From positions 48,032-112,031 of the forward strand of contig JANWKT010000020.1 in NCBI GenBank assembly GCA_025451235.1: a stretch of 64,000 nt of DNA. The letters run 5' to 3'. Below the pieces are notes generated by a model, which saw only the letters and a list, made by a program, of their open reading frames with translations, was not told the origin of the DNA and made no database searches. The stretch is from Flavobacteriales bacterium (GTDB lineage: Bacteria > Bacteroidota > Bacteroidia > CAIKAF01). Made by a program: the position numbers and the translations under genes. The stretch's first letter is position 1. Every line of letters begins with the position of its first letter. This document shows positions 5,925-58,760 of the stretch, in pieces.

Positions 5925-6293
5925 AGTCGTTTTAAATAATAGAAGAATGAAGGTATCTACATTTACATTTCAACCTGTTACAAAATTTTATAAATAGATT
6001 GCATCATTAACGAATGAAGGTTGATATTCATTTAAAACCTTGAATAACAGTTATTCAGCATTTTTAGTAGAGCCTCGATTGCGTTAACGGCTTAGTTAGC
6101 TGAAATGTCAGTAAAAACAGCATTTACAGGAGCATAATCCACCTCAAACTGGCTTAAAATATAAGGAAATTAACAACACCCTGCTTATAAGTTCGATGGT
6201 TATTGGTGAATGCGCTCTTCGGGTACCATACCTTTATGCTTATTTCAACCAAAAACAATTCTTAATTATTGCCACAGTTCAATACCATTATCT

Positions 6294-7835
6294 ATGGAAA
6301 TGAATAACTGTAAGCCGTTAAGATTTCTGATCGGATCTTGTCTCCTTATAGGAGGGATCCTTTCAGTGTCCGCCCAAACCTTTGTTCCCAAAGCCTCTTA
6401 CCTAGGGCAATGGGCCTTTGCCCCCGGGGTAGCGCATCAACCCAGCCAATCTATTTACCTCATGGGTACCTACCAGTTTGGAGATATTGATCAATTTATT
6501 AAATATGATGTAACCAATAATAGCTGGAGCACCATACCAGGAGTACCTCCTATCAAAAGTGAATTTGGATTTGCTTTTGGGGTGAGCAACAGAATATTTT
6601 TTGGAGGCGGTGTGGACCAACCAGGAACATTCTCCAATGCCACATATGAATTCATTCCTCCCAATATCTTTAACGTAGTAGATAATATTCCAAATGGACC
6701 CGCATCTGCCTTTAATTTCGTTGTTGGTAATTACGCCTATGTAGGTGGAGGTATGGTTACAGGTTTTGTGAATCTGAATAGTATGTTCCGGTTTGATCCT
6801 ACAGGAGCTGCGGGTACCCAATGGTCGGCTGTGAGTTCCTATCCTGGTTCAGGTAAATTAAATTGTAGTGCTGGTTCTCTCAACGGTTTTGGTTATGCAG
6901 GATTAGGACGTTCGAATCCCGGATCTACCGAATACAATGATTTCTGGAGATATGATCCCAATACAGGTGCAGGCGGAACATGGACTGCAATGAGTCCCTT
7001 CCCTGGAATTGCCAGGGAATGTGCCATCCTTACCCCCATTTGTGGAAAGTTGATCTTAATGGGAGGGGTTACCCAAACAGGAATGAACTTTAATGATATA
7101 TGGCAATTTGATCCTGCTGCCGGACCTTCGGGAGCCTGGACCTATCTTGGGACCAATAACGGAGTATATGGACCTCAAAACGGAAGATATGGGCCTGCTT
7201 ATGCTTCCTACGGAGATAGTTTGTTCTTAGGAATGGGGTATGGCGTGGCAGGAGCTAATAATGATTGGAAAATGTTTACATATTGTCCGGTAGTTCCCCT
7301 TCCAATCGAACTGGTGAATTTTAATGTTCAATTGAATCAGGAGTATGGAGTGGATATTTTATGGACAACTGCTTCGGAGATCAATAACCACCATTTTGAG
7401 GTGCTGAGATCAGTAGATGCGATCCACTGGGAGACCATTGAGCAAATAGAAGGTGCAGGCAACTCATCTTCATTGTTGGAGTATCAGGTGATCGACCGAT
7501 TTCCGATGCAAGGAATCAATTATTATAAAATAAAACAGGTGGATTATAATGGAGATTTTACATTTTCTGAAATGGCATCTATTGAAATCCTCGAAAACTT
7601 CCCTGAAGATCCTACGGTTTACCCAAACCCCGTAGAACAAAACCTGGAAGTAATTATTCAATACCTAACAGAAGGCATGTCCTATACTATATTGAATTGC
7701 TATGGTTCAGAAGTATTAAATGGGAAGATCAATGACGGTCAAACCACCATTCCTACCCAATCCCTTGCTCCAGGTATTTATTACCTGCGAATTCGCGATT
7801 CAAAAGAATCTACGTTCAAGATCATCAAGCTTTAG
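6294..7835 (+). CDS. Kelch/beta-propeller-like secreted protein with a conserved ~95-aa LPIELV…YYKIKQVD module and T9SS type-A CTD (paralog 1)
   Basis: Signal peptide from the internal Met. Glycine-rich propeller repeats. C-terminal VYPNPVEQN…GIYYLRIRDSKESTFKIIKL. Confidence 0.75.
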   Translation: MEMNNCKPLRFLIGSCLLIGGILSVSAQTFVPKASYLGQWAFAPGVAHQPSQSIYLMGTYQFGDIDQFIKYDVTNNSWSTIPGVPPIKSEFGFAFGVSNRIFFGGGVDQPGTFSNATYEFIPPNIFNVVDNIPNGPASAFNFVVGNYAYVGGGMVTGFVNLNSMFRFDPTGAAGTQWSAVSSYPGSGKLNCSAGSLNGFGYAGLGRSNPGSTEYNDFWRYDPNTGAGGTWTAMSPFPGIARECAILTPICGKLILMGGVTQTGMNFNDIWQFDPAAGPSGAWTYLGTNNGVYGPQNGRYGPAYASYGDSLFLGMGYGVAGANNDWKMFTYCPVVPLPIELVNFNVQLNQEYGVDILWTTASEINNHHFEVLRSVDAIHWETIEQIEGAGNSSSLLEYQVIDRFPMQGINYYKIKQVDYNGDFTFSEMASIEILENFPEDPTVYPNPVEQNLEVIIQYLTEGMSYTILNCYGSEVLNGKINDGQTTIPTQSLAPGIYYLRIRDSKESTFKIIKL

Positions 7836-7983: not shown

Positions 7984-9525
7984 ATGATCACTCTTCATAA
8001 AAAAATATTTTATTCAATTTATTTAGTTGGATTTTTCATTTTACTGAATTCAACTTTTGCAGATGCTCAAACTTTTTTGGCTAGAACACCTTATTTGGGT
8101 CAATGGGCATTCGCACCAGGGCTAGCACATTTACCTACTACCTCTATTTATATTCCGGGCACCTACCAGTTTGGAGATGTTGACCAATTTGCCAGATACA
8201 ATGTAACCACAAATTCATGGAGTACAGTGGCAGGTTTACCCGCCATAAAAAGTGAATTTGGTTTTGCTTTTACGGTGGGGAACCGAATGTTTTTTGGAGG
8301 TGGGGTGGATCAGCCCGGTACTTTCTCAAATGTTACCTATGAATTTATTCCTCCTAATATTTTTACCACCATGGATAATATTCCTAATGGCCCAGCATCG
8401 GGATTTAGTTTTACGGTAGGAACCTTTGGATATGTGGGTGGAGGATTGGTGGCTGGATTTGGAAATTTAAATGCTATGTTCAGGTTTAATCCATTAGGTA
8501 TTCCAGGCACGCAATGGTCAACGATGACTGCTTATCCAGGTTTGGGAGATATTAATTGTGGGGCAGCTTCATTGAATGGATATGGATACGTTGGTTTAGG
8601 AAGAGCTAATCCGGGAGCAACGGAGTACAACGATTTTTGGAGATATGATCCACTCTTAGGTGCTGGAGGAACCTGGACAGCTATGGCACCCTTTCCTGGT
8701 GCACCCAGAGAATGTCCGATCATTTCTGCATTATGCGACCGGCTTATTTTAATTGGTGGGGTAGATCAATCGGGGGGTAATTTTAATGATATCTGGGAGT
8801 TTGATCCTACCGCCGGAGCTACCGGTACCTGGACCTTTTTAGGAACCAACAATGCGGTATATGGTCCGCAAAATGGACGTTATGGTCCTGCCGCAGGGGC
8901 CTACGGGGATAGCTTATTTTATGGAATGGGATATGGTGCACTTGGAGTTAACACGGATTGGAACATGTTTACCTATTGCCCAATACCATTGCCTATACAA
9001 CTCCTGAGTTTTGAAGCAAATAAATTAGATGGAGATATTGTAGAATTGAACTGGACCACTGCATCAGAGATCAACAATGATCATTTTGAAATTCAAAGAT
9101 CCATGGATGCAATGAACTGGATCGAAATGGGAAGAGTAAACGGAGCTGGAAATTCTTCTTCGAACATTCATTACCAGCATATTGATTATTCTCCATTTAA
9201 TGAGATCAATTACTACCGTTTAAAACAAGTGGACGTAGACGGGAAATTTGAATATTCCTGGATTATCTCCATTGATATTGATAAAAATAAAAAACCTGAA
9301 ATATTGGCTTACCCCAACCCCTCTTATGATTTTGTGAATATTACCCAAACTATTCAGCCTAGCCCTCTTTCCTATTCTATCTATGATAGCTTTGGAACAA
9401 AGATCTCTTCCGGAACTTTGGGAGAAGAAAAAAACGTATTGAGTACGGATGAGTTGTTACAGGGAATTTATTTTATGCATTTCGATGATAAAAACAATAC
9501 TACTGTGAAGATCATTAAATACTAA
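7984..9525 (+). CDS. Kelch/beta-propeller-like secreted protein with the LPIQLL…YYRLKQVD module and T9SS type-A CTD (paralog 2)
   Basis: Colinear with 6294..7835 at roughly 60–65% identity along the whole length. Ends …GIYFMHFDDKNNTTVKIIKY. Confidence 0.75.
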   Translation: MITLHKKIFYSIYLVGFFILLNSTFADAQTFLARTPYLGQWAFAPGLAHLPTTSIYIPGTYQFGDVDQFARYNVTTNSWSTVAGLPAIKSEFGFAFTVGNRMFFGGGVDQPGTFSNVTYEFIPPNIFTTMDNIPNGPASGFSFTVGTFGYVGGGLVAGFGNLNAMFRFNPLGIPGTQWSTMTAYPGLGDINCGAASLNGYGYVGLGRANPGATEYNDFWRYDPLLGAGGTWTAMAPFPGAPRECPIISALCDRLILIGGVDQSGGNFNDIWEFDPTAGATGTWTFLGTNNAVYGPQNGRYGPAAGAYGDSLFYGMGYGALGVNTDWNMFTYCPIPLPIQLLSFEANKLDGDIVELNWTTASEINNDHFEIQRSMDAMNWIEMGRVNGAGNSSSNIHYQHIDYSPFNEINYYRLKQVDVDGKFEYSWIISIDIDKNKKPEILAYPNPSYDFVNITQTIQPSPLSYSIYDSFGTKISSGTLGEEKNVLSTDELLQGIYFMHFDDKNNTTVKIIKY

Positions 9526-9621: not shown

Positions 9622-11835
9622 TTAATCCACCACGATATAGATCTGGTTGTTATGAACGAATTGAACGTTTCTGGCCTTGGTTAAATATTCCTTGGCGGTT
9701 TTATCGGTATTCACCAGGTTAAAATACTCATCGCTGGCAAATTTTATTTCTTTTTTCTTCAGATTGGAATTCGTCATTACATCTGCATCGATCATCTGGT
9801 TGTTCTGATAATACATGGCCCTACCATTGGCAATGGTATTATAGTTGACTATATCCATTGCTTTATCTGATTCTGATCCTTCATTCACTTTCATCCGCTT
9901 ATTTCCGGCTTTTGTATCAGAATAATTAGCAGCTCCATTGAGTTGCTGCACCTCTTCACTCTGGGTCATGGATATTTTTCCGTTGTCTTTTTGCAGATCA
10001 TCATATTCTTTCTCCATATTCATCGAACCCTGTCCAAGTGCCCCGTCGTTGAAAATAGTGAACCCGTTTCTGTCAACGTTACTCACTTTTTCATCCTCTA
10101 ATATGAGGTAACTTGTATAAGGAGTAATAATTCCATACCTGCGAGCCAACGTAACAATTTCGTCCTTGATCTCCTCGTTCTCGCCGGTAAGCCTGATCTG
10201 ATCCAACAGATCTCCAACCCTTCTGGATGCCCAAATAGATGGAACAAATTCATTGCTCATGGCTTCCTCTTTCCAGGCTACATCATATTCAAATTTCTGC
10301 ACTATCCCGTTCAGCTTGCCCTCAACAATTAATGTTGAGTTTCCAGGATTACGGAAACGACCACTGATGGTTAATGAGCTTCCATAAAAAATATCCGGAC
10401 AGTTCTTAGGAAAGATTTGATACTCATTAGGAGCATCTGCAAAATATATTTTCACATCCGTAAGTACAGGGGCAGATATCTTCGAGAAGAAATTGGTAAC
10501 GGTAGAACTAATATCATCCCCTTCCGAAACATAAGCCCTGAGGCCTCTTCCATCTGCTGCAATTTTATCCAACAATTTAATATTGAGGTCCTCCCCTATT
10601 CCAAAAGTAAAAATACGATGGCTCTTCGAATTGGCATCTGTTATTTTTTTCATGAGTTTTCCTTCATCGTATTCGCCAATGGTCGGTTTTCCGTCAGTAA
10701 TAAAAATAATATTCGAAGGGCGCAAAGGGTCGACCTTCTCTGTAAATGCCAGCCTGAATGCATCATCCATATTGGTCCCACCCAAGGCTTCTATCTTATC
10801 GATAAAAGCAAACGCTTTTTTCTTGTTGATTTCATCTGCGATCATTCTTTTTCCAAAAAGCTGATAAGCTTCCGTACCAAAAGTGATCACTTCAAACTTA
10901 TCCCCAGGATTTAGGATCTCCACACACTTAGTAAGGGTATTTCGGGCCTGAATGATCTTATCACCTCTCATGCTTCCGCTGATATCCATAATAAATGTCA
11001 CATCCTTGTTCACAATTTTATTCTGCTCAATAAACCCTGGACTAATATCCGCGATAAAAAATCCGTCCTCATTTTGTTCCTTGAACTGGAACATTGACAT
11101 TCCAAGTAAAGTAGAAGAAGTGGAGTAATACAGTTTGAATTGTGAAGGCATCGCATCGTTTCCTAATTCCATGGAAGCCTTGGCTTTGAAGTCGGAAGAA
11201 TGGACCACATCCACCAAATGAGTAGGCGAATACACATTCTTGATCTTTTCATTGGATTTGATATCCACATTCAATACTACCTCATCAATAGGTTTTGAAT
11301 TATACTTCAATGCATTCAATGGATAGGAATATTCGTAAGTACCGTTATCAATTGGCATATGATGTGCAAATACCAGTTTGATCTCTTTGGTTGATTTGGG
11401 CTCAATGGGAAATATCCTCATTCTTAACATCCCCTGATCTGAAAATTCAAGCAAAGCAGGGTCCTTCATCTGGCGAACAATATCTTCATAGACCTGTCTT
11501 GCCTTTAAAGCATCCAACATTTCCGCTTTTACCATTTGCCCATTCATTTCCATTCTAAATTCTTTGATGATAGCATTTTTGGGTAAGGGGAAAAAATAAT
11601 CCCCTTCCATTCGTTGTGAAGTACTGTTCTCGAATGTTTGTTCAACGGTGGTGATGGCTATTGGTCCGTCCATTTGAACGTCTATCCTTAGTTTTTTACA
11701 GTGTAGGGTATAATCCTGCACCCGCTGGGTCTGTATATTGGCCATAGCTGCATTGGTGATGATAAAACCACCCGCGAAACTGAACAGGCAACTGCAGCAG
11801 ATGGCTGCCATTACCAAAAATATTTTTTTGTTCAT
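9622..11835 (-). CDS. Secreted VIT-domain + vWA-domain protein
   Basis: Signal peptide. The N-terminal region resembles a vault/inter-alpha-trypsin (VIT) domain. MIDAS motif DISGSM with downstream T..G and ITDG motifs. Confidence 0.8.
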   Translation of the reverse strand: MNKKIFLVMAAICCSCLFSFAGGFIITNAAMANIQTQRVQDYTLHCKKLRIDVQMDGPIAITTVEQTFENSTSQRMEGDYFFPLPKNAIIKEFRMEMNGQMVKAEMLDALKARQVYEDIVRQMKDPALLEFSDQGMLRMRIFPIEPKSTKEIKLVFAHHMPIDNGTYEYSYPLNALKYNSKPIDEVVLNVDIKSNEKIKNVYSPTHLVDVVHSSDFKAKASMELGNDAMPSQFKLYYSTSSTLLGMSMFQFKEQNEDGFFIADISPGFIEQNKIVNKDVTFIMDISGSMRGDKIIQARNTLTKCVEILNPGDKFEVITFGTEAYQLFGKRMIADEINKKKAFAFIDKIEALGGTNMDDAFRLAFTEKVDPLRPSNIIFITDGKPTIGEYDEGKLMKKITDANSKSHRIFTFGIGEDLNIKLLDKIAADGRGLRAYVSEGDDISSTVTNFFSKISAPVLTDVKIYFADAPNEYQIFPKNCPDIFYGSSLTISGRFRNPGNSTLIVEGKLNGIVQKFEYDVAWKEEAMSNEFVPSIWASRRVGDLLDQIRLTGENEEIKDEIVTLARRYGIITPYTSYLILEDEKVSNVDRNGFTIFNDGALGQGSMNMEKEYDDLQKDNGKISMTQSEEVQQLNGAANYSDTKAGNKRMKVNEGSESDKAMDIVNYNTIANGRAMYYQNNQMIDADVMTNSNLKKKEIKFASDEYFNLVNTDKTAKEYLTKARNVQFVHNNQIYIVVD

Positions 11836-11843
11836 ATTACCTA

Positions 11844-13016
11844 TTATTTAAAGGTATAGTTCTTTTTCTCAGCTACCGACTTTACACTTTCAATCACCGC
11901 CTGATCCAAAGAGTTGGCTTCTCCTTTTTCTTTCATTTTTTCGTCAATAAATGCCTGACGTTGTACGTTGATCAAATTGATCTCATTCTTGATGGTGTCT
12001 CTTTTGGCAGACTGATCTGATACATATTTTACTTTTTGGTCATCATCCATATCCTTCATCGCTTCTGGCAATTCCTCTTTTTTAAGCTTTTTTATGTCCA
12101 CTTTATTTTCTTTTTGGGCATCTACCAGGTCCCAACTACCATTATAGTATCCACTACCCGCTTTGGCTACCGCTCTGTCAGCAATATTGGCTTTAGAATA
12201 GGATTCAGCATTTTTATCCTGGTTGGTTTGATTGGTTGCTGCCAAAGTCCCTTCAGCTCCATAAAATATATAAGTGGAATTCAGTTCATTGTTCAGCCTG
12301 ATCAAGGTTGAATCAAAAGGAGTTTCAATATAAACGGTGGCTTCATTCATATTAATACTTATAAATGATCCATCAGCCAACAAAGCTCCATCTTTCCATC
12401 CGGAATTAGCTCCATCCGATTCGTTGCCACAGTAAATAGTATTGATAATGATCCCTTTTTTAATGGCATCCCTGCAAGCTTTTTGGTAATCTATTGATCC
12501 TTGATTGAAGGGTTCGTTTCCAGCAATATAAACCAGCTTCAGGTCTTCATTCGATTCGGTCCAAGCCAAATTCAAAGTGGCATCCTGAATAACTGCACCG
12601 CAATATTCACTGCCGCCGTTGGTGGATAATTTAAAAAGTTCTTCCGATACCTTGTCAAGATCCGTTGTAAATGGAAGTACCTGTTGAATATAATTGCTTT
12701 GGGAAGATAATCCATCATTTCCATAATGGTACAATGCGATCTCTATGGTTGGTTTTTCGCCATTATATTCAGCTGTGGCCAGTTCATTCACTATTTTCCA
12801 TAATTGCGATTTGGCTTGTTCGATCAGGCCATCCATGCTGCCGCTGGTATCCATTAAAAGTGCTACCTGTATTTTTTGTTTACCATGGACCCATGATGAT
12901 GAAGATCGTTTGATAGCGGTTAACTTATCGGCTGCGGATACGGTTGATCCGGCCAATGCAGAGCTCAAAATACCTATCGATACTAATGCTGTTAATAGAA
13001 TTGCTCGTTTGCTCAT
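11844..13016 (-). CDS. Secreted vWA-domain protein with a charged, coiled-coil-like C-terminus
   Basis: Signal peptide from the internal Met (MSKRAILLTALVSIG…). MIDAS motif DTSGSM. Only 9 bp from the upstream VIT-vWA gene on the same strand. Confidence 0.75.
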   Translation of the reverse strand: MSKRAILLTALVSIGILSSALAGSTVSAADKLTAIKRSSSSWVHGKQKIQVALLMDTSGSMDGLIEQAKSQLWKIVNELATAEYNGEKPTIEIALYHYGNDGLSSQSNYIQQVLPFTTDLDKVSEELFKLSTNGGSEYCGAVIQDATLNLAWTESNEDLKLVYIAGNEPFNQGSIDYQKACRDAIKKGIIINTIYCGNESDGANSGWKDGALLADGSFISINMNEATVYIETPFDSTLIRLNNELNSTYIFYGAEGTLAATNQTNQDKNAESYSKANIADRAVAKAGSGYYNGSWDLVDAQKENKVDIKKLKKEELPEAMKDMDDDQKVKYVSDQSAKRDTIKNEINLINVQRQAFIDEKMKEKGEANSLDQAVIESVKSVAEKKNYTFK

Positions 13017-13135
13017 AATATTTAATTTTTTGTTTTTGAGGAACTCACCACTCATCGTGATTGAATTCATTTTTACCTATTTTTATGTATTGATTACACC
13101 CCAAAAAAAATTAGGTTCATTTTTTCTGAGTTTTT

Positions 13136-26151: not shown

Positions 26152-26883
26152 GTGAACACAACCACCAACGTTAAGCCATATAGCACCGAAAAGTCGAAAA
26201 AGGAAGAGGTGGCAGAAATGTTCAACAACATTTCCCATCGCTATGATTTTTTAAACCGGTTTTTGTCAATGGGGGTTGATATAGGCTGGAGAAAAAAAAC
26301 CGTGAGGGCAGTTGCTACAACAAACCCGCAACGCATTCTGGACGTGGCCACAGGAACAGCCGATCTGGCCATTGCACTTCGAAAAACAGGAGCCAAGGAA
26401 ATTATCGGATGTGATATTTCGGAAGGCATGATGGCCAAAGGAAGGGAAAAAGTGATCAAAAGAGGATTAGAAGACCTGATCCATTTACAACTGGGAGATT
26501 CGGAGCATTTGCCTTTTGATGACAATAGCTTTGATGCGGTAACGGTTGCCTTTGGAGTTCGAAATTTCGAATCACCCCGGGATGGATTAAGAGAAATTAA
26601 CAGAGTATTGAAACCAGGTTGTCGGATCCATGTATTAGAATTTTCAAAACCTGAGAAATTTCCCGTTAAGCAACTCTATTCCTTTTATTTCAAAACCATT
26701 CTACCTTTCTGGGGTAGAATCATTTCCAAAGATAAAGCGGCATATACCTACCTTCCCAATTCTGTAAAGGCTTTCCCTCATGGCGAAGGCTTCCTGCAAC
26801 TGCTGGCTGAATGCGGATTTCGCTCCAATTCGGCAAAAAAGCTTACTTTTGGCATTGCATCGCTCTATATAGGCGAAAAATAA
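26152..26883 (+). CDS. ubiE: Demethylmenaquinone/ubiquinone C-methyltransferase UbiE/MenG
   Basis: VAEMFNNISHRYDFLNRFLSMGVDIGWRKKTV plus the SAM motif VLDVATGTADLA. Probable GTG start. TAAATTTG -7 motif at 26125-26132. Confidence 0.85.
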   Translation: MNTTTNVKPYSTEKSKKEEVAEMFNNISHRYDFLNRFLSMGVDIGWRKKTVRAVATTNPQRILDVATGTADLAIALRKTGAKEIIGCDISEGMMAKGREKVIKRGLEDLIHLQLGDSEHLPFDDNSFDAVTVAFGVRNFESPRDGLREINRVLKPGCRIHVLEFSKPEKFPVKQLYSFYFKTILPFWGRIISKDKAAYTYLPNSVKAFPHGEGFLQLLAECGFRSNSAKKLTFGIASLYIGEK

Positions 26884-26914
26884 ATACCTGGTTTTCCCGT
26901 TGTATTGTTCAATA

Positions 26915-27658
26915 ATGTTAACTAACAGTTTCATAAAAAGATCCCTTTTTTCTGTCGTATTCGTTGGAATTTTTATGTCTCAGCATTCCTTTGCTCAATT
27001 TACTGGTAACAAAAAACAAAAAAGAGTGGTAGGGACCAATATGCCAAAATACGACAGAAGGTTATTTCATTTTGGTATCAATATAGGAACGCAGATCACC
27101 GGGGTGGGGCTTCGAACCATTCCTGATCTAAGGGCTTTATATCCTGATACTATTTATTCCATTACTCCAGTATGGACACCTGGCTTTACAATGGGTATTG
27201 AAACCAACCTGAGATTGAATGAAAATCTTGATCTCCGGTTTACTCCACAGCTCACCCTCACCTCCCGAACATTATTATATGAACGCCCAGCCGGTAGAGT
27301 GGATAAATTTGAAATCGAGGCTACCTTCATTGAATTTCCCTTATACATAAAATTCAAAACCAATCGGATCAATAATTTCAGAGCTTATGTAATCGGTGGT
27401 GGAAAATACGTATACGATATTTCTAATAAGGTTCAAGCTGAAAACGCGGCCGACTATCCGGTGAAATTTCGTGCAAATGATGTTCAGGCGGAAATGGGAT
27501 TCGGGCTGGACTTTTATCTGCCCTATTTTAAATTTTCAACACAGATCAAAGGCTCCTGGGGATTTGTTAATTTGCATTATCCCGAAAACAATGCCTATAA
27601 TCGGGGTATTGAGGGCTTATATGCCCGAAGTATCTTTATTACTTTCCTCTTCGAATAA
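26915..27658 (+). CDS. Outer-membrane beta-barrel protein (PorT/OmpA-like small barrel family)
   Basis: Signal peptide, ~240 aa with alternating hydrophobic strands. The family call is by resemblance only. Confidence 0.5.
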   Translation: MLTNSFIKRSLFSVVFVGIFMSQHSFAQFTGNKKQKRVVGTNMPKYDRRLFHFGINIGTQITGVGLRTIPDLRALYPDTIYSITPVWTPGFTMGIETNLRLNENLDLRFTPQLTLTSRTLLYERPAGRVDKFEIEATFIEFPLYIKFKTNRINNFRAYVIGGGKYVYDISNKVQAENAADYPVKFRANDVQAEMGFGLDFYLPYFKFSTQIKGSWGFVNLHYPENNAYNRGIEGLYARSIFITFLFE

Positions 27659-33239: not shown

Positions 33240-34064
33240 ATGAAAACAATAATGATTCCGGTGGCCCATAATGCGCCAAAGGAGAAAATAAGGAACTGTA
33301 TTCATTTACTTGCTGATAAATCAAGATATAGGCTCCTGTTGTTTCATGTGGTTTCTATTCCTACGGTTGGTGACTCCATAGAAGGTATTGTGGTGGGGGC
33401 CGAAAAGACCATCGAAGATATCCGGGAAAAGGAGGAGAAAGCCTTTCGTGAATTTGCAGAACTTATCATTGCTGATGGATATACCGTAGATATTTCGGTC
33501 CCTATTGGTTTTTTTGATGAGAAATTCATTTCAACTGCCAACGAGGTAAAACCATCCTTTATCATCATGTTTACAGGAGGCTCTCATGGGTTATTAGAAG
33601 ATATGTTCGGCACCAACGCATCTTTTGTTTTTGAAAAAGTAACACCTCCTATTTTTATCATTTCCTATGATTATAACTTGAAGAAATTGTCAAAGGCAGT
33701 AGTTGGCCTCCACCTGGAAAATGAACGCCTTGCTGTTCTGGGTGACTACTTTCACTTTGCAGATGAGCATAAATTGGAATCCAATTTTATAAAAATAGAC
33801 CATCGCCTTCAACTTGATATTATAGATGACGGCAAAGTGCTTAACCAGCTCCAAAAAATGTACCCTGGTAAAATCGAGTTCATTGTCCACCGATCATCCG
33901 AAGATATAGCCGAAGGTCTCGAGAAATATGCCGATGAGTCTGGTTCTGATGTGATCGTATTGTTTACTACCAAAAGAAACTTTATTGAGAAGTTATTCCA
34001 CAGAAGTGTGGCCCGTGACCTGGTATTGCACTCTAAAAAGCCATTGCTGATCTATCATTACTAG
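33240..34064 (+). CDS. Tandem (double) universal stress protein-domain protein, paralog 1
   Basis: Two Usp-like halves. GGSHG…G ATP-binding-like motif. Ends …KKPLLIYHY. Confidence 0.65.
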   Translation: MKTIMIPVAHNAPKEKIRNCIHLLADKSRYRLLLFHVVSIPTVGDSIEGIVVGAEKTIEDIREKEEKAFREFAELIIADGYTVDISVPIGFFDEKFISTANEVKPSFIIMFTGGSHGLLEDMFGTNASFVFEKVTPPIFIISYDYNLKKLSKAVVGLHLENERLAVLGDYFHFADEHKLESNFIKIDHRLQLDIIDDGKVLNQLQKMYPGKIEFIVHRSSEDIAEGLEKYADESGSDVIVLFTTKRNFIEKLFHRSVARDLVLHSKKPLLIYHY

Positions 34065-34257: not shown

Positions 34258-35082
34258 ATGAAAACTGTTCTCATTCCTGTTTCTAAAGATGCTCCATGGG
34301 AGATCATCACAAAAAGTATGCGTTTGTTTATAAAACAAACTGTTTACCGTTTACATTTTGTGCATATGTTAAGTTCAATATCCTCTAAAGAGTATCTGGA
34401 AGCCGTTGAAAATGGTGAAAAAGAAAAAGTGGAGGAAATGAAAAGGCTTGAAGGAGAGCCGATCCATGCATTTGCTGAAAACCTGAAAAAAGAAGGATAT
34501 AAAGTAGAAGTTTCTACTCCAATGGGTGTATTCCATCAGAAATTTGCGGAGATGGCGAACGAAATGAAACCCGCGTTTATCATGATGCTCACTACCGGCT
34601 CTGATAATCTGTTGGAAGAAATAATGGGAACAAATACTTCCTATGTATTTGAGAACACACTATCACCTATGTTTATTGTTCCCATCAAGTCGGAGTTAGT
34701 AAACTTTAAACAAGCTGCCATAGGTCTTGAACTGGAAAATGAAAACCTGGAAGCATTAAAACCATTTTTTGATTTTGTCGACGAAACAGGAATTGATACA
34801 AGCTTTATAAAGATAGAGGACCATCTTCAGATGGATATTATTAACGACGAGCGTGTATTAATTGAGCTGGGAAAGCTATACCCAAACCGGATTGACCATA
34901 TTGTTCATAGGGAGTCGGAGGATGTGGCGGAAGGACTTGAAAAGTATGCTGATGAATCGGGCTCAGATCTGATCGTTCTATTTACCACCCGGAGGAATTT
35001 CATTGAAAAGCTCTTTCATAAAAGTGTAACCAGGGATTTGATATTACACTCTAAAATGCCGCTTCTGATCTATCATTACTAA
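34258..35082 (+). CDS. Tandem (double) universal stress protein-domain protein, paralog 2
   Basis: Same length (274 aa) and colinear with paralog 1. Ends …KMPLLIYHY. Confidence 0.65.
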   Translation: MKTVLIPVSKDAPWEIITKSMRLFIKQTVYRLHFVHMLSSISSKEYLEAVENGEKEKVEEMKRLEGEPIHAFAENLKKEGYKVEVSTPMGVFHQKFAEMANEMKPAFIMMLTTGSDNLLEEIMGTNTSYVFENTLSPMFIVPIKSELVNFKQAAIGLELENENLEALKPFFDFVDETGIDTSFIKIEDHLQMDIINDERVLIELGKLYPNRIDHIVHRESEDVAEGLEKYADESGSDLIVLFTTRRNFIEKLFHKSVTRDLILHSKMPLLIYHY

Positions 35083-51483: not shown

Positions 51484-52617
51484 ATGGCTGATATTGTAGT
51501 AAAAAAGGTGACGGATACCCCGGAAATGAAGAAATTCATCCGGGTTCCCTGGAGGATCTATAAGGACGACAAAGTTTGGGTGGCACCTATTAAATCACAG
51601 TACAAAAAAATATTCGATAAAAAGAAAAACCCTTTCTTTTTACATGGAGATGCTGACTTTTTTATTGCAGAAAAAAACGGCGAAACCGTTGGTAGAATTG
51701 CCGCTATCACTAATAAACTGCATACCGAAACCTGGAAAGACAAAGTGGGTTTTTTTGGATTTTTTGAATGTATCAATGACCAGGAGGTAGCAAATGCCTT
51801 GTTGAACGCTGCGGCACAGCACTTAAAATCACTTGGATTTGTGCAAATGAGAGGACCTGCAAGTCCCTCCAGTAACGAAGACTATGGAGTATTGATCGAT
51901 AATTTTACAGATCAACATGTACTGCTTTCGGTTTACAATGCCTCTTATTATCACCAGCTATACCAAAAATATGGTTTAGAAGGTATTAAAAAACTATATG
52001 CTATTAAATTCCCTGGTCTGCTGATTCGGGAAAAGAGCGGTGAAAGGCTCACTAAATTGCGAAAAGCAGTGATGGAAAGAACAGGTATTTCTTTTGAAAG
52101 CCTGAACATGAAAAAATTTAAAGAAGCAGTTACTACCTTTAAGGGGTTGTTTAACGAGGCATGGACTACTGAGAACAACCATGGATGGGTTCCACTAACA
52201 GATGCGGAATTTGAGGCTATTACAGGTGATCTGAAGCAAATTACAGATCCTGACCTGGTGATGTTGGCCAAGGTAGGCGACCGGGTGGTAGGTGGAGTTA
52301 TTTGCTTGCCGGATTACAACGAAATTTTCAGGAAATGGAAAGGAAATATTTTCCCGTTTCATTGGATTGACTTATTTACCAAAAAAAGGAAGATCCAATG
52401 CTTACGCATTGTTATTTTAGGTGTTCTACCCGAATATCAGAAAAAAGGATTAGATGCCATTATGTATTATGAGATCCTTGAAAGAGGACTTGCCAAGGGC
52501 ATGAGTTGGGCCGAAGCATCCTATATTGTAGAAGACAATATGCCCATGTTCAAACCTCTTATGAATATCGGCGGTGAGATCTACAAGACCTATATGGTCA
52601 TGGAGAAAAATATTTAA
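51484..52617 (+). CDS. GNAT-fold acyltransferase-like protein
   Basis: C-terminal GNAT motif-A-like …LGVLPEYQKKGLDAIMYYEI… Start set at MADIVVKK to avoid overlapping trmN6. Confidence 0.45.
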   Translation: MADIVVKKVTDTPEMKKFIRVPWRIYKDDKVWVAPIKSQYKKIFDKKKNPFFLHGDADFFIAEKNGETVGRIAAITNKLHTETWKDKVGFFGFFECINDQEVANALLNAAAQHLKSLGFVQMRGPASPSSNEDYGVLIDNFTDQHVLLSVYNASYYHQLYQKYGLEGIKKLYAIKFPGLLIREKSGERLTKLRKAVMERTGISFESLNMKKFKEAVTTFKGLFNEAWTTENNHGWVPLTDAEFEAITGDLKQITDPDLVMLAKVGDRVVGGVICLPDYNEIFRKWKGNIFPFHWIDLFTKKRKIQCLRIVILGVLPEYQKKGLDAIMYYEILERGLAKGMSWAEASYIVEDNMPMFKPLMNIGGEIYKTYMVMEKNI

Positions 52618-52647
52618 GACGAACTTAACATCCCAGGTAGCAACCGC

Positions 52648-52680
52648 AAAAAAAAGACGGATAAAAATCCGTCTCTTCAT
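52648..52680. terminator. Bidirectional terminator agacgga-taaaaa-tccgtct with A8/T tracts
   Basis: Read directly. Nearly identical to the hairpin at 54460-54490. Confidence 0.6.
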
Positions 52681-52700
52681 TTATATTTTCATTCTTGCCA

Positions 52701-54431
52701 TTAATTCTTGAACACCGTAAAGAATCCTTTAAATGGTTCGTTTACTTTATCATCCACCACATAAAAATATACCCCGTCAACCACATCGGGTTTCCAGTCG
52801 TTTTTATATGACTTTTCATAATGTAACAAAGTTCCCCAGCGGTTATAGAACCAGACTTCATTTTCTGGATATTGCTCTATATTCTGTATGAAGAATATAT
52901 CATTCAATCCATCATCGTTGGCCGTGATCACATTAGGGATAATAATTGGACATTGAATCACAATCGTGACGGGCGTACTTGTTCCTGCCTTTTCACAATC
53001 ATCTTCAATATTTACATAATATACCGTGGTGGTACCCATAGTGGCGTTCGAAGTAGCCGTAGTATCACCTGTGGGATACCATGTATAATGATAGTTCCCA
53101 AACCCACCTGTTACAATCGGATTGAGTAATGGGGGAATTCCTCCAGGGCATAAGGTGGTGTCACCATCCATAATAGCAACTATTGGAATATAATCTTGTA
53201 TATACAGTTTACGGAAAAGAGTAATAAGACCCGTATCACATGGATTGGTAAAGCTCATGGACAAGATCAGGGTATCTGTTCCTTCATCTAATCCATCGGC
53301 ATTTGCTGTAATAATAATACTGTCGGCAAAAACACCCTGGGGTATGATCAATGTATTCACAATGGGATCATAATCGGATCCTTCAATTGCATTTCCACCT
53401 TTTATAATAAAAATGGTATCGGCAGAGCTGGTATCCTGGCGTGAAAAAATAAATACTCCTTGCTCACATCCTTCGGTAAAAACACTGTCAGGTGTAAATA
53501 TTCCACCTTCGATCGTACCACTGCTAAATTGTAATGTTGGAGTTGGAGGGCAATTGGTGACGTTAAACTGAAAATCGCGGGTATGGGTACCAATCAATAC
53601 TCCATTTCTATATTCATCACAACAAATACCTACTACAAACTGACCCAACTGGGTTGGAGTAAGCGTTAATATTCCGGTTACCGGATCAATAGCCAATGGA
53701 GGCGCCCCTGAAATGGGATCCAACGCGGTAAATGGTGGAATAAAAGTAATGGGGTTAAAGGGTGGTGCTGAGGTAATCTGAGGTTGTGAATTGAATGCAT
53801 CTGCACCAATATAGGGAGAGCAAATATAATATACCAATGAATCACCATCGGGGTCAGTGGCAGAATGATCAAAAACCAAGGGTTGATTAATACATAATGC
53901 TATAGGGGGAAAGTTCGTATACCTGGGACTGTTGTTACAAGAATCTTGAACAGGAACTGTTTCGTAATAGGTGGTTCCAGTATTCCCGGGATCCAAAATA
54001 TTGATGATCGAATTGTTTCTACAACATCTCTGATAAGCAAAAATATACCCTGTTGGTGAGACGGGCAGTGTTACAACGGTTTGATAAATGGCTTCCTCCA
54101 CACAAACACCGCTGGGGGCTATAAAGCAAGGATCGGTAGAAACGATCGGTAATACAATAGCTCCCGGAAATGGAATGGCCACCGTATCAATAAATAAGGG
54201 GCTGCCTGATCCATCCCAGATGCTTATATAGGCAGGATTATCATATGCGGCAGTTCCGGGATTACAATCGCGGTAAACTTTTAAGGTCAAACGATAGGTG
54301 TTGGGGCCTATGCAATCATAAATCAATTCACCTCCAATGATATGGGTCGCATTAGTACGAATCACCGATGAACTGAATAGCAACATGAAAAGGGCTATAC
54401 CAAGGAACCTTAATCGTTGAAGTTTTGCCAT
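52701..54431 (-). CDS. T9SS type-B sorting-domain (CHU_C/SprB-type CTD) protein with a Cys-rich N-terminal domain
   Basis: C-terminal IIPNVITANDDGLNDIFFIQNI…NRWGTLL… is the 'gliding motility-associated C-terminal domain'. The N-terminal …THIIGGELIYDC…YRDC…CC… domain is typical of this cargo class. Confidence 0.8.
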   Translation of the reverse strand: MAKLQRLRFLGIALFMLLFSSSVIRTNATHIIGGELIYDCIGPNTYRLTLKVYRDCNPGTAAYDNPAYISIWDGSGSPLFIDTVAIPFPGAIVLPIVSTDPCFIAPSGVCVEEAIYQTVVTLPVSPTGYIFAYQRCCRNNSIINILDPGNTGTTYYETVPVQDSCNNSPRYTNFPPIALCINQPLVFDHSATDPDGDSLVYYICSPYIGADAFNSQPQITSAPPFNPITFIPPFTALDPISGAPPLAIDPVTGILTLTPTQLGQFVVGICCDEYRNGVLIGTHTRDFQFNVTNCPPTPTLQFSSGTIEGGIFTPDSVFTEGCEQGVFIFSRQDTSSADTIFIIKGGNAIEGSDYDPIVNTLIIPQGVFADSIIITANADGLDEGTDTLILSMSFTNPCDTGLITLFRKLYIQDYIPIVAIMDGDTTLCPGGIPPLLNPIVTGGFGNYHYTWYPTGDTTATSNATMGTTTVYYVNIEDDCEKAGTSTPVTIVIQCPIIIPNVITANDDGLNDIFFIQNIEQYPENEVWFYNRWGTLLHYEKSYKNDWKPDVVDGVYFYVVDDKVNEPFKGFFTVFKN

Positions 54432-54459
54432 TTTTTTATTTGTTATATTTTGTAAATAT

Positions 54460-54490
54460 AAAAAAAGACGGACAAAAATCCGCCTCTTTT
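54460..54490 (-). terminator. Intrinsic terminator agacgga-caaaaa-tccgcct (one mismatch) with a T6 tract on the minus strand
   Basis: Read directly. A duplicated copy of the 52648-52680 terminator. Confidence 0.55.
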
Positions 54491-54512
54491 ATATAGATAT
54501 TCATTCTTGCAA

Positions 54513-56213
54513 TCACGGATTTTTAAATATCATGAAGAAATCTTTAAATGGATCATTCACTTTATCGTCAACCACATAGTAATAAACTCCATCCGATAAA
54601 TGAGGGGTCCAGTCGTTCTTATAGGACTTGGCATAGTGCAGCAAGGTCCCCCATCGATTAAAGAACCACACCTCGTTCTCAGGATATTGATCAATATTCT
54701 GAATGATAAATGTATCGTTCAGTCCATCTTCATTGGCTGTAATAACATTGGGTATCACTATTGGACATTGGATCACGATTGTTACAGGCATGCTAGCAAT
54801 GGTTTTACCACAATCATCTTCAATATTTACATAATATACCGTGGTTTCACCCATAAATGCATTAATCGTGGCGGTTGTATCCCCTGTGGGGTACCATAAA
54901 TAATGGTAATTACCGAATCCCCCCGTGACGACGGGGTTCAATAAAGGAGGAGGCCCACCCCCCGGACAGAGCGTAGTATCCCCATCCATGAATGCACTCA
55001 TTGGAGTATAATCCTCCAGGTATAATGTTTTAAATATAGTATCTGTTCCGCATGGATTATCAAAGGTGATATAAATGGTTACGGTTTCTGTTCCCTCACC
55101 ATTCACTCCATCATCAAATGCAGAAATGATGATGCTATCCCTGAATTCTCCTTGTCCGATCACAATAAAATCAGGCACATCGGTATAGTCGGTTCCCTCG
55201 GTCGCCGAACCTCCGGTAAAGAAGAAAATTGTATCTACTGCATTGGAATCAGGTCGGGTGAAAAAATAAATGGCCTGCTGGCAACCCTCTACGAAAACTG
55301 AATCCGTAGTAATACTATCACCGTCAATCGTTCCTCCAGAAATTTGCAGGGCACTGGATTGAAAACTACCCGCCTCCAACATAACGCCTGAATCAAAAGC
55401 TGCATCACCTGCATCCGCCACTGCTATCTTCAAATGGTAGGTCTGATTACATTGTACTACAGCCATCGCTGTAAGTCTTACCGTAAACCCATCATACTGG
55501 CAATTGTTAAAACCAGGTTCAGCCACATTATCGTTATTTACATAATAAACGTTGTCTCCATTATCCCAATTGGGGTTGGCCGTTTCACAAGTAGCAGGTG
55601 TACCAAAAGCTCCGGAAACACCCAGGTTAATAGTATTAATAGCCACAGGAGTAGATGTTCCAGGGATGAGAGCTATATTTTCTGCTCCTAAGGAAAAAGG
55701 GCCACTAAAACCTGGACCACTGATAAAAAAGCCAAATACATCGTTAAATCCTGAACAAGTATATTCGTTATACTCTTCGGAACAGAATACATAATTGAAT
55801 CGGATAGTGTCACCTGCTGGCACGAAGTCAAACTCCAATACGGCTTTGTTAAAGGTAGTATTACTGCATAAAGTGTTCAAATCGCCATCAGAACCAGCAT
55901 CTGCTGTGGGTGGTAGGCTAAAACTTCCTGAATTATTTGGTCCTAGCGCTTCATTAATATCCCCCGTTGCCAGGATCATACCGTTGCCAATACCTATGCT
56001 TCCATTTCCCTGTGTAAAAGTACCAATCTGGTTATTGAGAGAGGATCCTGGATTTCCGTTAAAAGTAATATTAGAAATAACCACCCCTTGGCCTGCCAAT
56101 ACGTTCTGTACAATCTGGGTTGGAGTTAAAGCCCCGCTTACTGCGATGGGTTGAGCCCATAGGGTGATTCCTCCGGTTATTACAAAGAGTAGAAGTAAAT
56201 AAATTTTCTTCAT
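54513..56213 (-). CDS. Choice-of-anchor-L domain + T9SS type-B sorting-domain protein
   Basis: N-terminal …FDFVPAGDTIRFNYVF.SEEY.EY…FNDVFGFFISGPG…YHLKIAVADAGDAAFDSGVMLEAGSF matches the choice-of-anchor-L pattern. The C-terminal 190 aa are ~80% identical to the 52701 gene. Confidence 0.8.
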   Translation of the reverse strand: MKKIYLLLLFVITGGITLWAQPIAVSGALTPTQIVQNVLAGQGVVISNITFNGNPGSSLNNQIGTFTQGNGSIGIGNGMILATGDINEALGPNNSGSFSLPPTADAGSDGDLNTLCSNTTFNKAVLEFDFVPAGDTIRFNYVFCSEEYNEYTCSGFNDVFGFFISGPGFSGPFSLGAENIALIPGTSTPVAINTINLGVSGAFGTPATCETANPNWDNGDNVYYVNNDNVAEPGFNNCQYDGFTVRLTAMAVVQCNQTYHLKIAVADAGDAAFDSGVMLEAGSFQSSALQISGGTIDGDSITTDSVFVEGCQQAIYFFTRPDSNAVDTIFFFTGGSATEGTDYTDVPDFIVIGQGEFRDSIIISAFDDGVNGEGTETVTIYITFDNPCGTDTIFKTLYLEDYTPMSAFMDGDTTLCPGGGPPPLLNPVVTGGFGNYHYLWYPTGDTTATINAFMGETTVYYVNIEDDCGKTIASMPVTIVIQCPIVIPNVITANEDGLNDTFIIQNIDQYPENEVWFFNRWGTLLHYAKSYKNDWTPHLSDGVYYYVVDDKVNDPFKDFFMIFKNP

Positions 56214-56225
56214 GGTGGTAGCCTT

Positions 56226-56591
56226 TTATTTAATGATGAGTTTTTTAGCCAAAAGGGTTGCATTGCCTTTCCAGATATATAAGGTATAATATTTCTCGGT
56301 AAAAAGGCTCAGAGGTATGATTAGATGCTTATCATCCACCACTTCGATGGATTTGGTGTCAATTTCTGTGCTTTTTGACGAAATAATGCTGATTTTCCTT
56401 GATTTAACAGGAATATCGGCAGGAACAATATTCTTTATATAAACATATTTGCCGATGGCCTTCGAAAATTCAACCGGTTTGTTAGGGTCACTTACCAAGT
56501 AAATAGTATCATTCACAACCTGACCGATTTGGGAAAAACCCACCGACAGAGCTCCTACACTCAATAAACAGGTCAGAAAAATCCTCTTCAT
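56226..56591 (-). CDS. Mini-protein: signal peptide plus a T9SS type-A-like CTD only
   Basis: MKRIFLTCLLSVGALSVGFSQ then ~100 aa ending …KYYTLYIWKGNATLLAKKLIIK, which resembles the CTD endings of the other cargo genes in this window. Confidence 0.4.
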   Translation of the reverse strand: MKRIFLTCLLSVGALSVGFSQIGQVVNDTIYLVSDPNKPVEFSKAIGKYVYIKNIVPADIPVKSRKISIISSKSTEIDTKSIEVVDDKHLIIPLSLFTEKYYTLYIWKGNATLLAKKLIIK

Positions 56592-56672
56592 TCGTAAATT
56601 TAATGATAAAGTCAAGTATAAAAATACGAAAAATTTTAAACTTTGCCAGAATTTAAGGTAGATTTATGCACC

Positions 56673-58760
56673 ATGGATGAATCGCGGTATTTTAACAGGG
56701 ATATAAGCTGGCTATCCTTCAATTACAGGGTTTTGCAGGAAGCCATGGATCCATCTCTTCCCATTTATGAACGGATAAAGTTCCTGGCCATCTACAGCAG
56801 TAATCTTGACGAGTTTTTTAGGGTCCGGGTTGGGGTGATCAGGCATTCTTTAACGATTTCTAAAGAGAGAGAAAAGGCAGAATTACTCCTCAGCCAAATC
56901 AATGAAATAGTGGATTCACAACAAAAAGAATTCGGCTATGTTTTTAGAGAAACAGTTTTACCTGAACTGGAACGGAATGGGATCCGGCTTATCTTGGATG
57001 GACATTTTACCAAAAAACAACAGAGCTTTTTAAAACAATATTATCAGGAAGAACTCATTTTTCATGTTCAGCCGATCTTATTGGTAAAAAATAAAGTAGT
57101 TCCATTTCTGCAAAATGGATCCATATATTTATTGGTTGCACTTACCAGTAAAAGAAAAAAAGCCTCTAAAACCGGTAAGTCAGCTAACACCGCTACGAAA
57201 AGAAGAAAATATGCCATTTTAAAAATTCCCAGTGATGTGGCTAAAAGGTTTGTTGAACTACCTGCCGCCAATAGTAAGTTCTGTATTACCTTCCTGGATG
57301 ATGTGATCAGGTTCAACATGGAAGAGATCTTTAAGGGATATGACATTGAATTTGCGTATAGTATTAAATTATCCAGAGATGCAGATCTTCATATTGAAGA
57401 TGAATTCAGGGGAGATTTAGTGGAAAAAGTAAAGAAGAGCCTGGGCAAAAGAAAAACAGGTGAACCCAGCAGGTTTTTGTATGATGAGAAAATGCCTAAG
57501 GATGCAGTTAGTTTTTTGAAGACCACTTTTAAGCTCAAAAAGAACGAAATGATTGCAGGTGGCGGGTACCATAATTTCTATGATTTTTTCAAGTTCCCAA
57601 ATCCACTATCCCCAGCATTGGAAAGTTTCCCAAGATTACCATTAAGACTTCCACATTTCGATAGCTTCCCATCTATGTTCGAGGCGATCAAAACCAAAGA
57701 CTGGATACTTCATTTTCCTTATCAGAACTATGATTACGTGTTAAGGTTTTTAAACGAGGCTTCCTTCGATCCCAAGGTTTTCGAAATTAAAGCTACTCAA
57801 TATAGAGTGGCTCCTGAATCAGGGATTGTAAATGCGTTGATCAATGCTGCCAGAAATGGGAAAAAAGTGACGGTTTTTGTGGAAGTAAAGGCCCGATTTG
57901 ACGAAGAAAGTAATATGAGGTTCGCCCAGCAAATGGCATCAGCCGGGGTAAATATTATTTATAGTTTGCCAGGTTTGAAAATGCACGCCAAAGCTATCCT
58001 GGTATCGCGGGAATCAGGCAACAGAAGAGGAGTAAGACAATATGGCTATTTGAGCACTGGCAATTTTAATGAGAGTACAGCAAAAATATATGCCGATCAT
58101 GGTTATTTTACTTCTACGTACGAAATATGTGATGAGTTAACTTTATTCTTCAAGGAACTTGAAAAACGCACCAATGAAATTTCTTTTCAACAGCTCCTGG
58201 TGGCCCAATATAATATGGTCCCTCGGTTACACGAGTTGATTGACAGAGAAATAAAAAATGCAAAAAACGGGAAGAAAGCAAATATCGTGATCAAGCTCAA
58301 CAACCTGGAAGATGAAAGTATGATCGATAAATTATACGAAGCATCTATAGCCGGAGTAACCATTGAGATTATTGTTAGAAGTATTTGCAGAGTGATCCCC
58401 AATCAAACTTTTTCAAAGAATATACGGGTAAGAAGAATTGTAGATCAATACCTGGAACATGCCCGTATTTGTGTTTTCTACAATGGAGGAGAGGAAGAGG
58501 TTTATTTATCATCCGCTGATTGGATGAAAAGAAATTTATTGCACAGGATCGAATTAGGTTTTCCCATCAATGACCCCACCTTAAAAAGTGAGTTACTTGA
58601 GATTATTCAATTGCAATTGAAGGACAATACCAAAGCCCGTATTATTGATGAGCACCTCCGCAATATTCATCCACCTAAGGTCGGCTTAATTCATCGGTCG
58701 CAATCCGAAACATACGAATTATTAAAAAACAAATATTATCAAGTCTTCGCAGACGATTAA
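56673..58760 (+). CDS. ppk: Polyphosphate kinase 1
   Basis: YFNRDISWLSFNYRVLQEAMDPSLPIYERIKFLAIYSSNLDEFFRVRV and PLD-like HxK motifs. Length ~695 aa. Confidence 0.9.
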   Translation: MDESRYFNRDISWLSFNYRVLQEAMDPSLPIYERIKFLAIYSSNLDEFFRVRVGVIRHSLTISKEREKAELLLSQINEIVDSQQKEFGYVFRETVLPELERNGIRLILDGHFTKKQQSFLKQYYQEELIFHVQPILLVKNKVVPFLQNGSIYLLVALTSKRKKASKTGKSANTATKRRKYAILKIPSDVAKRFVELPAANSKFCITFLDDVIRFNMEEIFKGYDIEFAYSIKLSRDADLHIEDEFRGDLVEKVKKSLGKRKTGEPSRFLYDEKMPKDAVSFLKTTFKLKKNEMIAGGGYHNFYDFFKFPNPLSPALESFPRLPLRLPHFDSFPSMFEAIKTKDWILHFPYQNYDYVLRFLNEASFDPKVFEIKATQYRVAPESGIVNALINAARNGKKVTVFVEVKARFDEESNMRFAQQMASAGVNIIYSLPGLKMHAKAILVSRESGNRRGVRQYGYLSTGNFNESTAKIYADHGYFTSTYEICDELTLFFKELEKRTNEISFQQLLVAQYNMVPRLHELIDREIKNAKNGKKANIVIKLNNLEDESMIDKLYEASIAGVTIEIIVRSICRVIPNQTFSKNIRVRRIVDQYLEHARICVFYNGGEEEVYLSSADWMKRNLLHRIELGFPINDPTLKSELLEIIQLQLKDNTKARIIDEHLRNIHPPKVGLIHRSQSETYELLKNKYYQVFADD

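Follow-up and report, generated by a model that had tools for sequence, protein, structure and literature searches.

Proteins of the PorP/SprF family collect type-B cargo of type IX secretion (the T9SS) from the translocon and anchor it (PMC9143113). Nine of the 12 type-B genes of Flavobacterium johnsoniae adjoin an sprF-like gene, and the three orphans left over (Fjoh_1123, Fjoh_1720, Fjoh_4934) have the unlinked shuttle Fjoh_1677 in common. Closely similar type-B C-terminal domains (CTDs) can cross-use shuttles, and the functional type-B signal can reach beyond the conserved CTD, to a length of about 235 aa at most (PMC12618676). Here, we describe two adjacent type-B cargo genes, A and B, in a 64,000-nt stretch (64 kb, called the window) of a Flavobacteriales bacterium (assembly GCA_025451235.1, contig JANWKT010000020.1, positions 48,032 to 112,031). 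All coordinates are positions within the window. Genes A and B are probably the local version of an old Bacteroidota gene pair, namely orphan type-B substrates between which an Ig-like + CTD module was exchanged.

Judged by cargo type and gene neighbourhood, A and B resemble the three F. johnsoniae orphans in encoding adhesin-like type-B cargo that has no porP/sprF-like gene beside it. In both sets, a single shuttle would be expected to serve more than one cargo protein where the CTDs are related. Unlike the orphans, A and B are adjacent to each other, make up a phylum-wide conserved pair, and carry a module of ~165 aa that appears to have been exchanged. As far as SprB/SprF and Fjoh_3952/Fjoh_3951 are described in PMC9143113 and in PMC12618676 (citing Kulkarni et al. 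2019), they appear to share with A and B a type-B CTD, the T9SS route, and a repetitive beta-sandwich structure, and the functional signal would in both cases be longer than the conserved CTD. Judged by the same accounts, A and B differ from SprB/SprF in having no downstream shuttle gene and in a length of ~570 aa, compared with the giant SprB.

A preliminary description of this DNA, made from its letters, had reported two adjacent minus-strand genes, and the open reading frames (ORFs) were found exactly there:

54513–56213, minus strand: gene A (ORF list), T9SS type-B cargo protein of 566 aa; in order, signal peptide, choice-of-anchor-L, Calx-beta, Ig-like, CHU_C CTD
55362–56111, minus strand: choice-of-anchor-L domain of A (aa 35–284; NF038133)
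55002–55346, minus strand: Calx-beta-fold domain of A (aa ~290–404), which evolves by orthology
54516–55001, minus strand: Ig-like + type-B CTD of A (aa 405–566), the putatively exchanged, homogenised module
52701–54431, minus strand: gene B (ORF list), T9SS type-B cargo protein of 576 aa; in order, signal peptide, Cys-rich THIIGGE beta-sandwich, cadherin-like, Calx-beta, Ig-like, CHU_C CTD
53544–54347, minus strand: N-terminal region of B, in which a Cys-rich THIIGGE...YRDC...QRCC domain is accompanied by a cadherin-like one carrying the FDHSATDPDGDSL motif
53193–53543, minus strand: Calx-beta-fold domain of B (aa 297–413), which evolves by orthology
52704–53192, minus strand: Ig-like + type-B CTD of B (aa 414–576), the putatively exchanged, homogenised module

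Gene A was a clear member of the choice-of-anchor-L family (NF038133/PF26766), with an NF038133 score of 246.1 bits (E 2.5e-73, cut-off 27, profile 3-219/219); gene B had no NF038133 match. CHU_C (PF13585) was detected on both B (67.6 bits, aa 496–573) and A (62.9 bits, aa 486–554) above the gathering cut-off of 27. The profiles thus agree with the early assignment of a choice-of-anchor-L domain to one gene and a type-B CTD to both. The names choice-of-anchor-L and "gliding motility-associated C-terminal domain" (CHU_C) describe domains only.

The N-terminal halves, already described as unrelated, had no similarity detectable by BLASTP. The remainder aligned between B297-576 and A286-565 with 67% identity over 282 aa (E 6e-132), and this identity was a mosaic of 48% in the Calx-beta domain, 81% in the Ig-like domain, and 81% in the CTD. 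The initial estimate of ~80% identity over the last ~190 aa holds for the last ~165 aa (~81%), and its extent needed correction, given a homology of mixed levels over 282 aa. DNA-level alignment of A and B covered the last 554 nt only (73.5% identity) and took in ~52 nt beyond the stop codons, up to where the T-tract ends.

A profile made from B's N-terminal region served to fetch related loci from GTDB species representatives, and their neighbour genes were called. This gave 88 related loci, of which 65 were informative (individual loci are given by L numbers). An A-like gene was found directly upstream of a B-like gene in 34 of the 65 informative loci, with gaps of -165 to 125 nt, and two A-like genes were present in 12 loci. 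The A-B loci came from metagenome-assembled genomes labelled Flavobacteriales, Chitinophagales, Sphingobacteriaceae, and other Bacteroidota. The linkage of a choice-of-anchor-L gene to a following THIIGGE/cadherin-like gene was not described in any report found by our literature searches.

The A and B partners of a locus share the type of domain that precedes the CTD within each clade, which is PKD in other clades and Ig-like here. The C-termini of A and B were 27–42% identical over 80–230 aa in most loci. Only in the window clade (the window, L001, and L002) did A and B reach 59–68% identity over ~280 aa; L087, which has A and B, was added for domain-wise comparisons. The ~81% seen in the window lies far above the family level, so that the similarity is more than the common CTD family resemblance which the preliminary description had named as an alternative; the resemblance is nevertheless old, as shown below. 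An exhaustive HMMER search with the last 185 aa (the C-terminal handle) returned 22,361 related cluster representatives, among which one B-family representative reached 68% identity and the rest 53% or less; sequences covering the full module were at most 47% identical. The high-identity module is therefore private to the A and B genes of this clade rather than a widely shuffled cassette.

In the window clade, the genes followed the order ppk1 | small ORF -> A -> B. A slot bounded by the small ORF and a GNAT-like gene contained A and B in the window, L001, and L087, B only in L004, L082, L083, and L084, and A only in L088. L002 had A and B with different downstream genes. This variation of the slot fits either recombination between shared 3′ modules or repeated gene loss.

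The Calx-beta domain and the Ig-like + CTD module gave conflicting trees. In the Calx-beta tree, the A-versus-B split had 100% bootstrap, as did the grouping of the B proteins of the window and L082 (WIN_B+L082_B). The Calx-beta domains of A proteins were 71–80% identical among themselves (the more divergent L088_A excepted) and 32–48% identical to those of B proteins. In the Ig-like + CTD tree (165 aa), the bootstrap of the A-versus-B split was 0%, and the sequences grouped partly by genome in WIN_A+WIN_B+L084_B (80%), L002_A+L002_B+L082_B (85%), and L087_A+L087_B (60%). A tract in which paralogues group by genome, in conflict with the phylogeny of its flank, is the pattern used to recognise gene conversion. 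The DNA match between the genes, for which a recombination-type breakpoint had been anticipated, starts at 55013 in A and 53195 in B and coincides with the boundary of the tree conflict. An old exchange breakpoint would thus lie at the Calx-beta/Ig boundary, close to 55010 in A and to 53195 in B.

The choice-of-anchor-L domain of window A was 66% identical to that of L088_A and 45–46% identical to its counterparts in L001 and L002; these two domains shared 78% identity. The Calx-beta domain of window A was 71–74% identical to those of L001 and L002. This N-terminal domain of A may have undergone a replacement of its own or may be fast-evolving.

The synonymous sites of A and B were saturated. 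Synonymous divergence (pS) between A and B was 0.84, ranging over 0.79–0.90 across every part of the genes. Where A and B have identical amino acids, the same codon was used in 41% of cases, compared with 46% expected from codon usage. Non-synonymous divergence (dN) in the Ig-like + CTD module was 0.10–0.15. Since the synonymous sites are saturated, any exchange is old, and a recent duplication is thereby ruled out. The comparisons between genomes were all saturated or nearly so, and synonymous sites are therefore unable to date the events relative to speciation.

The preliminary description had favoured a recent duplication with local domain shuffling. If one cargo gene had recently been duplicated in tandem and its N-terminal domain then replaced, this would account for two genes in tandem on the same strand with a common C-terminus, 3′ untranslated region (3′UTR), and terminator. 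Such a history would leave unexplained the synonymous sites at chance level, the Calx-beta domains that are only 48% identical and sort by orthology with 100% bootstrap, and the A->B pair, which spans several orders and 34 of 65 loci. We regard this explanation as extremely unlikely. The arrangement is ordinary and largely explained, and a recent domain shuffle is not supported. Mammalian TLR1/TLR6 (PMC2077338) are, like A and B, tandem paralogues homogenised in one segment with a discrete boundary. Unlike in TLR1/TLR6, the synonymous sites of A and B are saturated, so any conversion would be ancient, and its support comes from the incongruence of the protein trees and the shared 3′UTR.

The similarity of A and B continues into the non-coding elements behind them:

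54460–54512, minus strand: 3′UTR and intrinsic terminator of A, a copy of the element 3′ of B (folding free energy, dG, -16.6 kcal/mol)
52649–52700, minus strand: 3′UTR and intrinsic terminator of B, facing a convergent 432-aa gene that ends at 52617

These elements were identical at 45 of 53 nt (85%), homologous from the stop codon to the last T of the T-tract, and contained the GCAAGAATGAA motif. The near-identical terminator noted early on after each gene was recovered as a 24-nt hairpin with two occurrences in the window at 3 or fewer mismatches (0 expected by chance). The dG was -16.6 kcal/mol for the A hairpin and -18.5 kcal/mol for the B hairpin, with z-scores of -3.6 and -4.6. The element was not found after A or B in the relatives, and the A orthologues of L001, L002, L087, and L088 lack it. 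The A-B spacing in the relatives was 0–125 nt, and in L001 and L087, A runs nearly straight into B. The combined UTR motif had 0 matches in metagenome contigs. The bare hairpin had eight matches there, all in unrelated contexts (e.g., after tRNA genes) and none beside homologues of the handle, which indicates that the hairpin alone is a generic terminator sequence. An Rfam search of 52000–57000 at E ≤ 1 gave only sub-threshold chance matches. Conservation of the non-coding UTR above that of the synonymous sites points to one of three causes: selection on the element, a later separate short conversion, or independent insertion of a terminator cassette.

The resemblance of the two modules could also have arisen without DNA exchange. 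After an ancient duplication, purifying selection and parallel co-adaptation to one lineage-specific shuttle would have kept the Ig-like + CTD parts alike. The absence of a conversion signal at synonymous sites and the low dN of the module (0.10–0.15) agree with this, and it is on record that CTDs are specific for their shuttles and that similar CTDs cross-use them (PMC12618676). Selection on proteins is nevertheless unable to yield non-coding homology of 45/53 nt that stops at the T-tract. Co-adaptation also sits poorly with the fall of the A-versus-B split to 0% bootstrap over 165 aa, and with the finding that the same slot holds both genes in some relatives and just one of them, A or B, in others, as expected of recombining repeats. 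We therefore prefer DNA exchange and hold co-adaptation by itself to be possible, at a clearly lower probability.

Several points weigh against an exchanged module in an old orphan pair. The trees are neighbour-joining trees only, with 14 sequences and some supports of 43–62%. The case for exchange rests on the incongruence of the protein trees and on the UTR, without a signal at synonymous sites; gene conversion would be expected to lower synonymous divergence inside the tract, and the pS of 0.84 showed no such lowering. The UTR is 85% identical while the synonymous sites are random, so that a single old event is insufficient without selection on the UTR. The type-B assignment itself has a weak side, in that the TIGR04131 (Bac_Flav_CTERM) scores of the two proteins were 33.2 and 34.8 bits (E 4e-8 and 1e-8), just under the NCBIfam cut-off of 35.

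No PorP/SprF gene (PF11751) was found in Pfam scans of 23 window ORFs. A home-made PorP hidden Markov model (HMM), built from six Pfam-confirmed relatives, also had no match among the six-frame ORFs (≥100 aa) of the window. The absence of a nearby PorP/SprF gene, remarked on in the preliminary description, is thus real; its reading as an anomaly is not supported. None of the 34 A-B loci had a PorP/SprF gene within 10 kb. A type-B gene with no PorP/SprF neighbour is a known state, since the orphan substrates of F. johnsoniae are documented (PMC12618676).

Among the 88 loci, PorP/SprF genes were found only after six long genes with the B domain alone. Examples are L034 (3887–4972), L038 (13903–14934), and L048 (14635–15666), which lie downstream of B-domain proteins of 1272–1552 aa and whose products end in AKKRVCPIYM. 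This ending has a C-tail cysteine and recalls the C-tail cysteines of SprF, which are reported to be disulfide-bonded to GldK (PMC12635249).

At one end the pair is flanked by ppk1 and the small ORF, and at the other by the GNAT-like gene:

56226–56591, minus strand: small conserved secreted ORF of 121 aa (from MKRIF...), with 12 nt between its end and the start of gene A

The transcription unit probably begins with the small ORF. Its orthologues (49–76% identity) lie between ppk1 and the A/B slot in seven relatives (L001, L002, L004, L082, L083, L084, and L088), with the conserved C-terminus YYTLYIKKGNATI..KKLIIR. It had no Pfam or NCBIfam match. Its KKLIIK ending suggested a stand-alone type-A CTD, which was rejected at an hhalign probability of 0.1%.

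The small ORF, or some other factor, could be the dedicated partner of A and B, with no PorP/SprF shuttle in use. In the window clade it constantly precedes the slot, with 12 nt separating it from A, which would suit such a role, as would the lack of any PorP/SprF gene within 10 kb of an A-B pair. However, it is absent from L085 and from the A-B loci outside the window clade, its mature protein of ~100 aa is too small for a PorP-type barrel, and it has no detectable homology to anything characterised. We consider a dedicated partner of this kind highly improbable.

A component of the T9SS itself was found elsewhere in the window:

26900–27658, plus strand: PorT/SprT equivalog (NF052311; 189.9 bits, cut-off 125), directly after a ubiE-like methyltransferase gene (26152–26883)

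This equivalog shows that the organism has a T9SS, and the window also contains five type-A CTD cargo genes.

Under the favoured explanation of an old orphan pair with an exchanged module, the locus would encode a choice-of-anchor-L surface protein followed by a THIIGGE/cadherin-like one, both being strings of beta-sandwich domains as in calcium-binding adhesins. Both proteins would be exported by Sec and then by the T9SS through the type-B CTD, and would most likely be served by one candidate PorP/SprF shuttle encoded elsewhere in the genome. A common shuttle would explain why selection keeps the signals of A and B alike. The functional signal unit may be the last ~165 aa (Ig-like + CTD), the part that would need to stay matched. 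This unit was probably swapped between the neighbours, either through gene conversion or through homologous recombination. The tract copied in this lineage would have passed the stop codon and brought the 3′UTR and terminator with it, and a terminator would thus have been placed between A and B.

Sec signal peptides were read by eye at both N-termini (MKKIYLLLLFVITGGITLWAQ and MAKLQRLRFLGIALFMLLFSSSVIRTNA), and the AlphaFold2 models of the two proteins had N-terminal helices at residues 2–18 and 2–21. The models were all-beta with a beads-on-a-string arrangement (predicted local distance difference test scores of 81.6 for B and 85.5 for A). The Calx-beta domains were assigned on a PF03160 sequence match or the Calx-beta fold, and aa ~170–294 of B showed the cadherin EC (extracellular cadherin) fold with a DxDGD-type calcium motif. 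Proteins A and B look like calcium-type adhesin-like surface proteins, a function suggested by the modelled fold only.

The N-terminal region of B had no match in Pfam or NCBIfam, or in the PDB when searched with its profile. At least 596 matches to its N-terminal domain were found in GTDB species representatives, which makes this an abundant family with no Pfam/NCBIfam model. Both protein families are large (>2,700 and >3,900 matches), and their named members are gliding-motility-associated C-terminal-domain or choice-of-anchor-L proteins. A group of 729-aa proteins (L003, P0012-P0026) were 64–66% identical to the N-terminal half of B, but carried PKD domains and a different CHU_C tail. This shows that the THIIGGE/cadherin-like head occurs on at least two C-terminal architectures. 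The invariant His of THIIGGE brought to mind a histidine brace of the lytic polysaccharide monooxygenase type, a reading that was set aside; the predicted signal-peptide cleavage puts the His at position 2, and the domain is a beta-sandwich beside a cadherin-like domain.

Other tandem genes occur in the window. Two Kelch beta-propeller genes with type-A CTDs (6210–7835 and 7984–9525, plus strand) were 59% identical over 502 aa; their CTD was the least conserved segment, the opposite of the A/B pattern, and they use the generic PorV route. Two similar 274-aa paralogues (33240–34064 and 34258–35082, plus strand) end in KPLLIYHY or MPLLIYHY. Three von Willebrand factor A-domain genes (3279–4961, plus strand; 9622–11835 and 11844–13070, minus strand) lie near several of the type-A CTD cargo genes. 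One of them has vWF_A + YfbK_C, one a VIT domain, and one a weak VWA_2 match.

A further-reaching proposal is that the pair is a two-component adhesin system with a matched extended type-B signal for one unlinked shuttle, in which the repeatedly exchanged ~165-aa unit is the determinant of shuttle specificity and the 3′UTR/terminator is a selected regulatory element. We offer this only tentatively and think it rather unlikely as a whole. If it were true, one shuttle would deliver A and B to the same surface site, and the 3′UTR/terminator would either fix the ratio in which A and B are expressed or function as a 3′UTR-derived RNA. The five CTD motifs alone have been insufficient for type-B shuttle specificity in experiments so far. 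The locus may serve as a natural experiment on which part of a type-B substrate specifies the shuttle, the matched unit being Ig-like + CTD, which ends sharply at the Calx-beta domain. This unit agrees with the experiments in which the functional type-B signal exceeds the conserved CTD. The importance of these findings is modest, and they leave the understanding of the T9SS unchanged. Their interest lies in the conserved pair, in a sharp exchange boundary that possibly marks the functional type-B signal, and in an oddly conserved 3′UTR.

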